From IMG/VR virus record IMGVR_UViG_2850796239_000010: DNA of 16,705 bases; one strand, written 5' to 3'. Of this stretch, positions 13,412-16,705 are shown piece by piece; the stretch's first letter is position 1, and each line of letters starts with the position of its first letter. The notes beneath the pieces are model-generated. The model searched no databases and was not told the origin of the DNA. It saw only the letters and a list, made by a program, of their open reading frames with translations. Both the position numbers and the translations under genes were made by a program. This DNA is from a virus. Taxonomy: Duplodnaviria; Heunggongvirae; Uroviricota; Caudoviricetes.

Positions 13412-13485
13412 AAGCCTAGCTCAACGATAAACGAATCAACTGTGAATTTGCTCATTCATATTTTTCACCTCTTTAAGTGTTTATA

Positions 13486-13529
13486 TACGAAAAAGGGGAG
13501 AGTCAACCAATTAAGGTTAATCTCTCCCC
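13486..13529 (-). terminator. Rho-independent terminator after the 70-aa gene
   Basis: 8-bp stem GGGGAGAG / CTCTCCCC with a 19-nt loop; on the minus strand followed by TTTTTCG. Confidence 0.5.
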
Positions 13530-13551
13530 GTATTTACCCAACCAATCCTTT

Positions 13552-13764
13552 TTAATGTCTGACAAGGTAATGTAATTCCGTTTCACCTATGATTTGAGCA
13601 TCAGAAGGAATACGGTCAATACACCACTTTGGAATCTTGCGTGTTTTTGGTTTGTGTGAGGTGATGTAATGACGGTTATTCTTAATTCGTAGCTTTTGTC
13701 TATTTGGTTGTAGCTGGAGTCTTTCGCAAACAGACCGAATAGTCTCTAAACGTTCTTCAAACAT
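13552..13764 (-). CDS. Hypothetical small basic protein (70 aa)
   Basis: ORF with strong Shine-Dalgarno GAGGTGA 4-5 nt upstream of the ATG and a terminator downstream; no family recognised. Confidence 0.4.
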   Translation of the reverse strand: MFEERLETIRSVCERLQLQPNRQKLRIKNNRHYITSHKPKTRKIPKWCIDRIPSDAQIIGETELHYLVRH

Positions 13765-13787
13765 TAATCACCTCACATATTGCATAA

Positions 13788-14413
13788 TCAAACAGCCTTG
13801 CTAAATTCTCGTGGAACACTCAGAAAATCATTGAAGCTGATAATCTGTGCCAATTCTTGACGGTACTCCTTAGCCAGCGCTTGATGGTCACTAATCAGCT
13901 CAGCTTGTGATTTATCAGCAACAATTAGAGACAGTCGATGTGGTGCTCTGACAGCTCTTTCTGTACGAACAACTCTTTGACCTTCTGGTAAATCTGCAAT
14001 CACTTTACCAATCTCTACAGGGTCATCCCCCAACCGTCACGGTCTAGTCGAGAGAAATAAGCATAAGGATTGGTTTGAAGCTCCATCAAAATAGCCATTT
14101 CGTCAATTTCGTCTTCAAGCTTGGACTGAATTTTCTCGTAAACACTTCTCATTGCTTCTTGAGAGTCTTTAATAGCTTGGAAATATCAGCGTTGTAGCTT
14201 CAACTTCAAATCAAGTTCACACCGTTCGTTCATAGAAAAATCAATTTCAACTCTTGGAATCTCGAGTGGTTCTGGTGGAATATATGGACCTTTATTTACT
14301 TCGTGTGATTCCCGCCAAGCTCTATCAAAAGATTCACGCAAACTTAATTCGTGAATATCAAGTGCACTTGGTCGGTTTTCGATAAGCATTTCATTTTCAT
14401 TACGGATAGACAT
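13788..14413 (-). pseudogene. Disrupted gene of unknown function (about 208 codons in three segments: in-frame TGA at 14186-14188 and a frameshift in a 5-G run at about 14024-14028)
   Basis: ATG at 14411-14413 with Shine-Dalgarno AGAGGA; the reading frame continues in frame past the TGA for 56 codons, then matches ORF 13788-14033 after a 1-nt shift inside GGGGG. Confidence 0.45.
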
Positions 14414-14590
14414 TATTTTTTCCTCTTCTAAGAGAATTTATGTTTCAGTTTTTAAAAAGCACACCTGACAGCCTACGAACTTAGAAGAGACTTAAAAGGC
14501 GGTTTGCCAAGTGTGCTTTTTAAAAGCTGAAAAAGCCCTAGATAACTAAAACGCTATAAAGGGCTGGTGAAGAAATTTCTTTAAAAACTC

Positions 14591-14620
14591 TTAAAAAACG
14601 CCCTAACTCATGATTAGGGC
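14591..14620 (-). terminator. Rho-independent terminator downstream of the 14953-15261 gene
   Basis: 7-bp stem GCCCTAA / TTAGGGC with a 7-nt loop; on the minus strand followed by GTTTTTTAA. Confidence 0.45.
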
Positions 14621-14952
14621 AATCTGTAAAGGATTCAAACGAATGAACAAGAGTACTTTTTGAGATAGCCTATCTAGTGTGGGCTAAATAGGCCATGGCG
14701 AAAAGCATTGCACCTTTCAGAATATTCGGTATAGAACATACCTCACCAACTCAGAATATAGTTATCATCGATGTAGAGATGATTAATAGTTTAATTCAGG
14801 AAGAGTTGCTCTCCCCTATTACCATCATCTCATGTCTAAGGTTATTTGTCAACAGCCTTTAACAGATTGATAACATCAATTCTTATTTACTGTGTTGCCT
14901 ACCAAGCAACCACACAATATACCTAAAGCCGTCCAGAGAATAACGAGTGTCA

Positions 14953-15261
14953 TTACATCACCTCACTGTAAGGGTTTAATTCATTCTGATAGGTCAAGAA
15001 TACATTCAGCTTCAATAATTGCTCAGGACTTAAATCAAGTCGATTGCACTCTTCAATGATAAAGCGCTTGTTGTGTGGGTCTGTCACTTCCAGCTTGTGA
15101 ACATAGTCGTCAAGTTTAATTTCGTTGATGGTGCGCTTGTCGATATAACTTGAAGCTTCAAAGCAATTCATGAAATGCACGTTAAATCCTGACCTGTTCA
15201 GGTCAATCAACCAATTCATAGTTTCTTGGTCAACCATAATTTGCATTGGGTAATTGTTCAT
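14953..15261 (-). CDS. Hypothetical protein (102 aa)
   Basis: ORF with strong Shine-Dalgarno AAAGGAGG upstream of the ATG; AT-rich; no family recognised. Confidence 0.5.
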   Translation of the reverse strand: MNNYPMQIMVDQETMNWLIDLNRSGFNVHFMNCFEASSYIDKRTINEIKLDDYVHKLEVTDPHNKRFIIEECNRLDLSPEQLLKLNVFLTYQNELNPYSEVM

Positions 15262-15419
15262 TTCCTAAAACCTCCTTTTTACCAGACCTCTTCAATCGCT
15301 CTGTAACGAGCTAAACAGTCTTTTTCAGGGGTAGCCTGTACAGTGGTATTACCCACCCTAAAATAAGATAGTTTTTTTTGCGTTAGAATGCGATTGAGAG
15401 CGACTGAGAAGCTGTTTTT

Positions 15420-15707
15420 CTAATTTCTCTTAAAGTCTCGGACTTGCATAAGATTTTTTGGTCTGGTATCGGCTCTGTTACCATTTCGATGGATAATTTG
15501 CTTATTGGATTGATAGCCATGATAAAGGAACCAGACAACATATTTCACGTAGAAAGTGTATCGGCCTATATTAAATGTTTTGTTGCCGTAGTCGTCGGTA
15601 TTTATCGTGACTGACTCTCCATCAGACCAGCACAGGGAATCACTGGATTCATCATAGATAAGGTGTTCTGTAAAATATCGTCTAACATCTTCATGCCAAG
15701 GTTTCAT
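15420..15707 (-). CDS. Putative HNH-family endonuclease-like protein (95 aa)
   Basis: Strong Shine-Dalgarno GAGGAGG; C-terminal YVVWFLYHGY...IIHRNGNRADTRPKNL resembles the HNH_3 pattern (AHRLAW...IDHINGNxxDNRxxNL). Confidence 0.45.
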   Translation of the reverse strand: MKPWHEDVRRYFTEHLIYDESSDSLCWSDGESVTINTDDYGNKTFNIGRYTFYVKYVVWFLYHGYQSNKQIIHRNGNRADTRPKNLMQVRDFKRN

Positions 15708-15919
15708 AAAACCTCCTCACCCCAATAACCTAATTCAATCTTGTGACGCTCAAACCATTCCGGTTTAACTGCTGTTTTCAGCGCTTCACTTGGACCAATG
15801 GCTTTAATGAAAATATCTTTTGAGTTATGGATGTCACCGAATCCGTTTCCTTTAATCAGGAGGTCGGAGATGTAGCGAATCATTTTATCTGTGTGGTATT
15901 CAAAGGTAACGCATAGCAT
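15704..15919 (-). CDS. Hypothetical protein (71 aa), translationally coupled to the HNH-like gene
   Basis: Shine-Dalgarno GGAGG upstream of the ATG; its stop overlaps the downstream start (ATGA). Confidence 0.45.
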   Translation of the reverse strand: MLCVTFEYHTDKMIRYISDLLIKGNGFGDIHNSKDIFIKAIGPSEALKTAVKPEWFERHKIELGYWGEEVL

Positions 15920-16233
15920 TAAACCTCCATCGCCAACTTGTGAATCTTGATACTCATTAGCCGGGCAATATCAATTTTAAAGCCGTTAAGTTCCTTCAAA
16001 GTATCTAAAGCGTCCTGAGTAATTCGGATGTGTTTACGACCTTTAGAGACTGGATATTTAAATAAATCCGACTCAGTGACCTCTTTAGCAATTGCAAGCT
16101 GCATAACAGTCTGATGAGGCAAGTTAGTAGCTCGTTTAATTCTGGCAAGCTCGTTAAAAGCTTCCTCTGAAATACGAGTCAAACTCGAAATCTGGCTCAC
16201 TGGTCGTAAGGCTGATATTACCAACCTCAACAT
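15919..16233 (-). CDS. Hypothetical protein (104 aa as called); start uncertain, overlaps the upstream ORF by 80 nt in another frame
   Basis: Long ORF but no Shine-Dalgarno before the ATG at 16233; the real start may be internal, or the two ORFs may be one frameshifted gene. Confidence 0.3.
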   Translation of the reverse strand: MLRLVISALRPVSQISSLTRISEEAFNELARIKRATNLPHQTVMQLAIAKEVTESDLFKYPVSKGRKHIRITQDALDTLKELNGFKIDIARLMSIKIHKLAMEV

Positions 16234-16705
16234 GATGATTGATTGTCTCGATAACTTTATTGCAAATGGTAGTTAAATTAGCGCAATACTTATCAGATGG
16301 TAGCTCGTAGCTAAGTCTGGTTGCTTGTCGCTGAAGATAATTTGTTATTGCACCTGAGCTAATCTTATCAAGGCTTCGAAGCAAATAGAAAATCTTCCGG
16401 TGATAATTATCTCTTCCAAGACTGCGACAAGTACCGATAATTATATCTTCAATTTTTGATGGTAATTGTTCATAGCTGTCAAAACTCATCAAGAAAGTTT
16501 TTAAAGTATTTTCTTTTTCTTTGCGTACTGGCATAAATCTGTCTCGTGGCGTAATGCTACGAATGACCGCTTCAATGTTTTTACGTTCGGATTTGGTAAA
16601 GGCTGGCAGTTCGTAGCTGGTGGGGGAGTTTGTGTAAGCGTAGGAGTTGTGCTTGTTTCTTGCCTTACTCTCTTCAAGAAACCTTTGAAATTCTCTGTCG
16701 TTCAT
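16154..16705 (-). CDS. Hypothetical protein (at least 183 aa); ATG falls exactly at the window edge, so the 5' end may lie outside the window
   Basis: Uninterrupted ORF to the window boundary, same orientation and AT-rich composition as the neighbouring genes; no family recognised. Confidence 0.4.
   Translation of the reverse strand: MNDREFQRFLEESKARNKHNSYAYTNSPTSYELPAFTKSERKNIEAVIRSITPRDRFMPVRKEKENTLKTFLMSFDSYEQLPSKIEDIIIGTCRSLGRDNYHRKIFYLLRSLDKISSGAITNYLQRQATRLSYELPSDKYCANLTTICNKVIETINHHVEVGNISLTTSEPDFEFDSYFRGSF

Follow-up and report, generated by a model that had tools for sequence, protein, structure and literature searches.

The satellite P4, which has P2 as its helper, has a genome of about 11.6 kb. 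The PLE of Vibrio cholerae carries a large serine recombinase at one end, together with a RepA_N or Pol I-C initiator whose position is conserved and a NixI-type nuclease (10.1101/2021.07.12.452122), and PICMI of the Vibrionaceae is described as having its DNA packaged as a concatemer (PMC10803314). The locus that we compare with these systems occupies positions 13412–16705 of a 16,705-nt stretch of Caudoviricetes DNA, the IMG/VR record IMGVR_UViG_2850796239_000010, and this whole stretch is hereafter called the window. A first-pass annotation, made from the sequence alone, had described the locus as an AT-rich module of small co-directional genes with no recognisable function and had guessed that, of the whole window, it is the likeliest part to contain something undescribed. 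This fits what we found. The region is almost certainly the central operon of a decayed copy of an 11-kb integrative element, and our literature search returned no description of this element or of any satellite of Felix O1-type phages or Ounavirinae. Intact copies carry homologues of two tail proteins of virulent Felix O1-type myophages (Felixounavirus and Mooglevirus, of the Ounavirinae) and non-coding DNA resembling the terminal repeats of these phages. We give a probability of roughly one half to the reading that the element represents a new family of satellites of virulent Ounavirinae, resident in Escherichia, Shigella, Citrobacter, and Salmonella.

The 11-kb element and its mobility

The GC content of the window drops from about 0.50 on the left to 0.37–0.40 across positions 13501–16500, which bears out the AT-richness reported at first, and the six minus-strand open reading frames (ORFs) listed for the locus are all present at the positions given below. 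A megablast search matched the block in 478 of 5,426 complete E. coli genomes at 80%–99% identity, with every copy in the chromosome. The annotation of the block in E. coli consists of six hypothetical proteins and one HNH endonuclease. Pairwise dN/dS ratios lie between 0.09 and 0.3 for the proteins that we call p183, p92, p71, p70, and p234. Because the block is kept in so many genomes and its genes show such ratios, these small ORFs are real genes under purifying selection and not chance ORFs.

The locus had been pictured as a compact, free-standing operon. The comparison with related genomes, which the first-pass annotation had itself proposed, places the block instead in the middle of a defined 11-kb integrative element at att sites. 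In E. coli PEC122 (locus L001) it lies within an 11.7-kb insertion that splits yecE, and in E. coli O55:H7 TB182A (L002) there is an 11.2-kb insertion between tonB and yciI, at the tonB start codon; E. coli O103:H2 strain 129 is a further carrier. Both loci have the same layout. Read from one end, the element comprises a large serine integrase, a tube-initiator homologue, the tape-measure protein (TMP), p70, p234, a region with a promoter, an RNA of about 200 nt, and hairpins, then a 25-aa peptide, p102/107, a small HNH protein, p71, p92, p183, p62, and variable cargo. The integrase (507 aa) has Resolvase, Recombinase, and Zn_ribbon_recom domains, the tube-initiator homologue is a 254-aa "baseplate" protein (Pfam Dit_like), and the TMP has 689 aa (TMP_3). 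In the layout common to L001 and L002, p107, the 95-aa HNH protein (HNH95), p71, p92, and p183 lie on one strand and p62 on the other, with a gap of about 570 nt between p234 and p107. The cargo slot adjoins a small serine recombinase and holds Dam-HTH in these two loci and HNH-AP2 or HTH proteins elsewhere. The integrases of L001 and L002 are only 34% identical, which fits their two different insertion sites (yecE and tonB).

A search with the whole unit gave matches in 570 of the 5,426 E. coli genomes, at no more than five places per genome and none on plasmids; the length of the element stays between 11.0 and 11.7 kb. Outside E. coli, its proteins occur in Shigella, E. albertii, E. fergusonii, Citrobacter, Salmonella, and Kluyvera. 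Gene presence was counted over 92 element loci, and the most constant genes are p92 (89 loci), p62 (81), and p102/107 (about 75), followed by p70 (63), the small HNH gene (57), p71 (53), and the 25-aa peptide (48). The core genes, p183, p92, p102/107, and p62, never stand apart from the TMP/integrase context in the loci examined.

The variants differ in how their genes diverge. HNH95 and p71 form one cassette (window 15420–15919; L001 22158–22657) with 96%–100% protein identity between variants (100% for HNH95) while the flanking genes differ by 10%–15%, and its dS is about 0.04 against 0.3–0.6 for those genes. This near-identity amid diverged flanks suggests a recent sweep, or a homing-like spread, of the cassette between elements. 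Loci that lack it, such as L004, have in its place another small HNH_3 protein and a 128-aa protein with a C-terminal HTH. The alleles of p234, p70, TMP, and the tube initiator swap as one unit between variants (40%–47% identity for TMP, 25%–30% for p234, 43%–55% for p70), unlike p183 and p92, which stay near 90%. From this co-swapping we infer that p234 and p70 act with the TMP of the element.

The ends of the element share a 13-bp core, CAATGACCCTTGA, which is common to attP, attL, and attR (attL at L002 15132–15144, attR at L002 26330–26342, and attP at 2009–2021 of the metagenome contig L005). In attP, the inverted repeat CCGAATAG/CTATTCGG lies on either side of the core. The element in L005 is circularly permuted, so that part of the "baseplate" gene stands at each end of the contig and the integrase adjoins the small recombinase, with attP as the junction; with an end overlap of 126 nt, the unit measures 11,015 bp. 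A second metagenome contig (L037) has the same permuted order, an end overlap of 55 nt, and a unit of 11,178 bp. The metagenome contig OOBX01000469.1 (L087 and L088; 23,009 nt) holds two complete head-to-tail units with a period of 11,477 nt and one mismatch; it represents a concatemer or else a circle round which the assembly ran twice. The three metagenomes with circular or tandem forms are ERZ27241592, ERZ506742, and OOBX01. In an isolate, contig L004 consists of the element and about 30 nt (k−1) of yecE on each side, beyond both att junctions, as would be seen in a culture containing both occupied and empty sites. Element-sized contigs of 10.6–12.1 kb are numerous in Logan, ENA, and metagenome data. 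Judged from these junctions and assemblies, the intact element is bounded by att sites, moved by its large serine integrase, and present also as an excised circle.

The att core holds the tonB start codon and the first three tonB codons. Integration there therefore keeps the tonB coding sequence and swaps the whole upstream region, with its promoter and Fur box, for element DNA by the integrase gene, and the regulation of tonB may be altered in carriers.

Links to Felix O1-type phages

The DNA of the TMP and tube-initiator genes matches 294–301 phage records, dominated by phages of Escherichia, Salmonella, Shigella, Citrobacter, and Erwinia, and among the matches listed every top one is an Ounavirinae-sized phage (Felixounavirus or Mooglevirus). 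Matches of the element to phage DNA are limited to these two genes and to short non-coding pieces, and they occur only in Ounavirinae. Coding DNA is about 74% identical between element and phage. When compared with the proteins of Citrobacter phage Michonne, the tube initiator is 65% identical and the TMP 34%; in the TMP, the first 50 residues are nearly the same and the centre is conserved. In the cryo-electron microscopy structure of the Felixounavirus Bas63, the gene after the TMP (gp17) encodes the tube initiator gp18, a hexamer that is seated on the hub and initiates the tail tube (PMC12609058). The two tail genes of the element thus correspond precisely to the proteins responsible for nucleating the tube and for measuring its length. 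These are its only homologues of virion genes; profile searches found no capsid, portal, terminase, sheath, or tube genes in it. The tube-initiator allele of one variant (L006) shares 94%–96% DNA identity over 519 nt with many Felixounaviruses, which points to recent recombination between element and phage. The hosts of the element (Escherichia, Shigella, Citrobacter, and Salmonella) are the same as the host range of these phages.

The module of small genes in the window has no match to known phage genes among 50,697 phage records, either as DNA (megablast) or as proteins (tblastn), and the phage early region that the first-pass annotation had offered as one origin is thus unsupported. Its other options, satellite elements and defence or anti-defence cassettes, are both compatible with the evidence.

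A second link lies in non-coding DNA. Felixounavirus genomes are packaged with short exact direct terminal repeats of 581–608 bp (PMC8303462, PMC4837284). The records of phages NBEco005 and NBEco004 have end repeats of 651 and 628 bp with like boundaries (on the left, AAATGCTA followed across the boundary by GCCCC; on the right, GGGCTACC followed by AAGCAG). The element in L001 is identical to NBEco005 over 51 of 51 nt within the repeat (L001 24338–24388; NBEco005 257–307) and over 25 of 25 nt further on (L001 25916–25892; NBEco005 601–625). The segment at L001 25800–25748 is 79% identical to phage positions 717–772 and forms with the 25-nt run a collinear block that runs across the right boundary, at position 651. 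The Citrobacter version of this block can be aligned over 179 nt, and it matches 132 phage records; among the 15 matches listed, all are phages of 82–90 kb and all but one lie in unannotated DNA. When three phages and six variants of the element are aligned, they have four blocks in common: GATATTTTAA..TGCAAAGGGG; GGGTAC..AGCAG, at which the phage boundary is placed; CAGATATTTTTGA; and TTTATAAAAATTTT. Exact runs in non-coding DNA, against about 74% identity in coding DNA, imply that these sites are constrained or were recently copied. The conserved block is probably a mimic of the phage packaging site. Taken with the tail genes, it makes a functional tie of the element to the Ounavirinae very likely.

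The 51-nt sequence, found also at L008 2450–2500, contains a GGATG-CTT-CATCC palindrome flanked by TTGGTA/TACCAA. It is identical, or has four changes, in some element variants, in which its position differs, which gives it the look of a small portable site. A short hairpin motif, ATAACCCCAGAAAGGG(G), is also common to the phage non-coding region and several variants of the element (L001 24311–24326 and 24528–24543, L002 24129, L010 1987, and, in NBEco005, 281 nt to the left of the terminal repeat).

The window copy: Small genes, RNA region, and decay

All element genes in the window lie on the minus strand. The first gene of the operon encodes p183 (16154–16705), an orphan protein with about 1,050 close relatives and only 23 representatives among 1.84 billion clusters. 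Its AlphaFold2 model has a helical core (pLDDT 80–88) and no fold relative. Its distant relatives share 25%–35% identity, and one of them opens an early-type operon on a phage-like IMG/VR contig (L018), which yielded no hint of what p183 does. The next ORF (15919–16233) encodes a homologue of p92, a core protein of 92 aa. Loss of 47 nt between GACCCGTATTT repeats took the stop codon of p183, changing its last 8 or so residues, and the ribosome-binding site and ATG of p92, so that the ORFs 16233–15919 and 16705–16154 now overlap by 80 nt. Among the overlapping stop and start codons first reported for the module, the overlap of this pair is a product of the deletion and not native. The only matches of p92 are sub-threshold ones to DndE; a DNA-binding role is possible, on a weak basis. 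We also considered p92 as a tandem ribbon-helix-helix protein, which the same DndE matches leave as a weak guess.

Downstream follow the two genes of the cassette, p71 (15704–15919) and HNH95 (15420–15707). The latter matches HNH endonuclease families in PHROG and, in Pfam, HNH_3 alone (E = 1.8e-8; 34.3 bits against a gathering cut-off of 24.8), which confirms the tentative HNH-like call made at first. HNH95 is thus a member of the HNH_3 family and a putative nuclease. The following gene, p102 (14953–15261), is a fast-evolving core gene with no family match, only 28% identical to the 107-aa allele of L001. Its stop codon overlaps the start (TAATG) of an ORF for a hydrophobic peptide of 25 aa, MTLVILWTALGILCGCLVGNTVNKN (14876–14953), which is unannotated in RefSeq and kept with conservative substitutions in 7 variants. 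The peptide could be a small membrane protein affecting lysis timing, or a toxin.

A 540-nt "gap" follows, and it is the most conserved non-coding part. It holds a sigma-70-type promoter and a candidate non-coding RNA or leader of about 200 nt (14592–14852; L001 counterpart 21357–21560), and then three successive hairpins before p234 (14443–14621; inverted repeat I1), kept in 7 variants, of which the first, running from 14621 to 14599, resembles an intrinsic terminator. The promoter, TTGACA-17-CATAAT, is invariant in the other copies. The predicted transcript has a 5′ hairpin with some compensatory changes, an invariant GAAAGGTGCAATGCTTTTC hairpin, and the terminator; the two further hairpins follow. 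Rfam gave no match anywhere in the element, and within the element we found no complementarity in trans of at least 11 nt to this RNA that could serve as a target like that of the P4 CI RNA. We infer that the promoter, RNA, and hairpins work together as a switch, by termination or antitermination, under which the tail module stays silent until infection.

Beyond the hairpins lies p234 (13788–14413), which in the window is a pseudogene: aligned to the intact gene of L001, it shows a CGA>TGA nonsense change and has lost 1 nt at one place and about 75 nt at another, which leaves ORFs of 75, 45, and 81 aa. Its family has 3,139 members at E ≤ 0.001. The AlphaFold2 model for the family has long helices and a small alpha/beta domain, and a Foldseek search of BFVD gave no match at E ≤ 0.001. 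Many NCBI records name the family "transposase" (proteins P0263–P0382); no Pfam or NCBIfam model supports the name, and it is therefore probably a propagated misannotation. Homology of p234 to the phage TMP chaperone was rejected (BLASTP E = 4.2). The basic 70-aa protein p70 (13552–13764), directly upstream of the TMP gene, is 100% identical to its counterparts in L001 and L005. The TMP gene is reduced to its first 44 nt (13412–13455; window position 13412 aligns to L001 20001 and the start codon is at L001 20044), the remainder having been lost at an insertion sequence (IS) junction. The first-pass annotation had overlooked this fragment, the 234-aa gene, the 25-aa ORF, and the conserved promoter, RNA, and terminator region.

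The profile hidden Markov model and structure-prediction searches that it had suggested yielded little. Across Pfam, PHROGs, PADLOC, and NCBIfam, the only family match for any of the small proteins is HNH_3 on the 95-aa protein, PDB profile searches gave no meaningful match for p183, p234, or p92, and the two AlphaFold models have no fold relatives. The defence-catalogue comparison returned no catalogued defence protein from PADLOC-DB v2, where the one weak match (PDC-S26, E = 5e-4) covers 70 residues of a 367-position model.

The window copy of the element is an inactivated remnant. Besides the lesions in TMP, p234, p183, and p92, its −10 box reads GATGAT against CATAAT in other copies and is followed by a 28-nt insertion. 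The window contains neither the integrase nor the tube initiator nor the right arm with its phage-like sites, these parts being outside it or destroyed in this copy, and a tube-initiator fragment sits elsewhere in a S. flexneri genome, amid IS elements. Such decay of elements is usual in Shigella.

In Citrobacter sp. ANG330 (L010 5868–9908), two ORFs (259 and 340 aa) on the opposite strand break up the TMP gene. We take them for an IS, in which case the tail module would have been inactivated by an IS a second time, independently. The rest of the window (1–12077) is a mosaic of Shigella type with yebW, pphA, the effector gene ipaH3 (NEL E3 ligase), tail-fibre, tail-fibre-assembly, and baseplate-J genes of another prophage remnant, and several IS3-family copies (IS600, IS911).

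A proposed satellite of virulent phages and its comparison with known systems

We lean towards the view that the element needs virulent Felix O1-type phages or is directed at them, and with slightly less assurance we favour its being a true satellite, transduced by them. On infection, such a satellite would excise and replicate, with a directionality factor that could be one of its own small proteins or a phage protein, as in PLE. The terminase of the helper would recognise the mimic of the terminal repeat and package the DNA, perhaps as a concatemer of 7–8 units, a number proposed because it approaches the genome size of the helper. The module of p234, p70, TMP, and tube initiator would be held off by the promoter-proximal terminators until infection, and once released it would take over or poison the tail assembly of the helper. 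The small genes of the window would be the regulatory and hijacking set, with p183 a candidate regulator or replication initiator, p92 possibly binding DNA, the small HNH protein acting as a nuclease on helper DNA or aiding terminase cleavage, and the 25-aa peptide placed in the membrane. The family would then be the first enterobacterial counterpart of the Vibrio PLE and the first satellite with its own TMP and tube initiator, one that re-programmes the tail core of its helper and mimics a terminal repeat for packaging, and its orphan proteins (p183, p92, p234, p70, the small HNH protein, and the 25-aa peptide) would represent new hijacking functions.

Several points weigh against this reading. 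Induction, replication, packaging, and interference are proposals drawn from sequence, and the functions suggested for the small proteins of the window are guesses, the two AlphaFold2 models and the profile searches having given nothing. No recognisable replication initiator, small terminase, or capsid-remodelling gene was found in the element, and this reading offers no reason for a satellite to have a TMP and a tube initiator of its own. The circular contigs derive from bulk metagenomes and not from viromes, and two IMG/VR matches lie on contigs of 25 and 54.5 kb, which are not element-sized. As to the terminal repeat, its boundaries were inferred from the duplicated ends of phage records, its left-boundary motif is absent from the element, where only the right-boundary-like site was found, and the conserved block could equally be a mimic of a promoter or an origin; each of these readings ties the element functionally to these phages as the packaging reading does.

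The alternative that survives best, unlikely as we judge it, is a mobile anti-phage defence island that is not transduced. Its variants of TMP and tube initiator, with p234 and p70, would be dominant-negative blockers of Felixounavirus tail assembly, its terminal-repeat-like DNA would be a decoy or sensor for the phage terminase or for a phage-modified RNA polymerase, its small genes would be regulators or effectors, and it would spread by ordinary horizontal transfer and its serine integrase. The links to Ounavirinae (tail genes, terminal-repeat block, and recent exchange) apply equally to such an island, the lack of detected capsid, terminase, and replication genes suits it, and the variable cargo slot by the small recombinase resembles those of defence hotspots. 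Against it, a length kept within 11.0–11.7 kb, circular and head-to-tail forms, and a conserved site like a terminase cut are needs of a packaged element and not of a pure defence island, and PADLOC finds no known defence protein. The two explanations also overlap, since satellites usually defend their hosts as well.

Still less probable is that the small ORFs are an autonomous toxin–antitoxin or anti-defence cassette merely riding on the element. Small overlapping genes, a hydrophobic peptide, an HNH protein, and the exchangeable pair of HNH and p71 would suit such a cassette, yet p183, p92, p102/107, and p62 are core genes (75–89 of the 92 loci) that keep to the TMP/integrase context, and neither PADLOC nor Pfam gave toxin–antitoxin matches. 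We consider it very improbable that the element is the inert remnant of a temperate prophage with a Felix O1-like tail module, sharing only ancestry with the virulent phages. The piecemeal annotation as prophage-like genes, the IS elements in Shigella and Citrobacter copies, and the clear decay of the window copy speak for a remnant; against it stand the same 11-kb architecture in more than 500 E. coli genomes with two or more att sites and different integrases, purifying selection on all genes, unit-length circular forms, the 94%–96% identity left by recent exchange with virulent Felixounaviruses, and the exact 51-nt and 25-nt non-coding matches where coding DNA is about 74% identical, and no larger prophage with these genes turned up in the phage, E. 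coli, or genome collections searched. The tie to the neighbouring tail genes drawn in the first-pass annotation is rejected, because the baseplate-J and tail-fibre genes (4836–12077) belong to another prophage remnant near pphA, which occurs without the module in other E. coli and is separated from it by IS elements.

Felix O1-type phages are classic typing phages of Salmonella, and cocktails for biocontrol and therapy against Salmonella, E. coli, and Shigella make wide use of them. If the satellite reading is right, the efficacy of such cocktails and the spread of resistance would be affected by an element that about 10% of E. coli genomes carry in the chromosome and that parasitises these phages or blocks them. 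A tractable model for satellites of virulent phages, hitherto studied mainly in Vibrio, would become available in E. coli, with a new strategy in which the core of tail-length control and tube initiation is replaced instead of the capsid being remodelled. Some ten orphan protein families, and one conserved RNA, would be given a definite biological setting for tests of their roles.

How does the element compare with the described satellites? The PICI and cfPICI of Enterobacteriaceae are likewise chromosomal islands that exploit phage virion components, but their helpers are temperate and the element has tail-core genes rather than head genes; profile searches detected none of their markers in it (tyrosine integrase, AlpA, Pri-Rep, and TerS or the genes of packaging and capsid modules). 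P4 has a nearly equal genome size, is integrated in E. coli, and carries a copy of the packaging site of its helper, and its RNA-based premature-termination switch resembles the promoter, RNA, and terminator region of the element. It differs in having a tyrosine integrase, the alpha primase-helicase, Sid, Psu, Delta, and a temperate helper, and profile searches for these proteins and AlpA were negative in the element. With PICMI, the element shares minimalism, both being small, without capsid-remodelling genes, and associated with a virulent phage; the two have no gene content in common, the host and helper families are others, and the element has tail genes. Compared with PLE, which measures 17–18 kb, the element is shorter (about 11 kb) and its host is enterobacterial. 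Comparison through Pfam and PHROGs detected no sequence relation between the two, and searches of every element ORF with Pfam, PHROG, and NCBIfam revealed no RepA_N or Pol I-C initiator and no NixI-type nuclease, the small HNH_3 protein being the only nuclease-like product. We know of no report of a PLE that encodes a homologue of TMP or tube initiator or that carries a copy of the terminal-repeat boundary of its helper. Since its gene content does not match that of the P4-like, PICI, cfPICI, and PLE families, we file the element in none of them. In its apparent life-style it most resembles PLE, its best functional analogue: a compact chromosomal island with a large serine recombinase, nearly all hypothetical proteins, and a nuclease gene, linked to one lineage of virulent myophages (10.1101/2021.07.12.452122).

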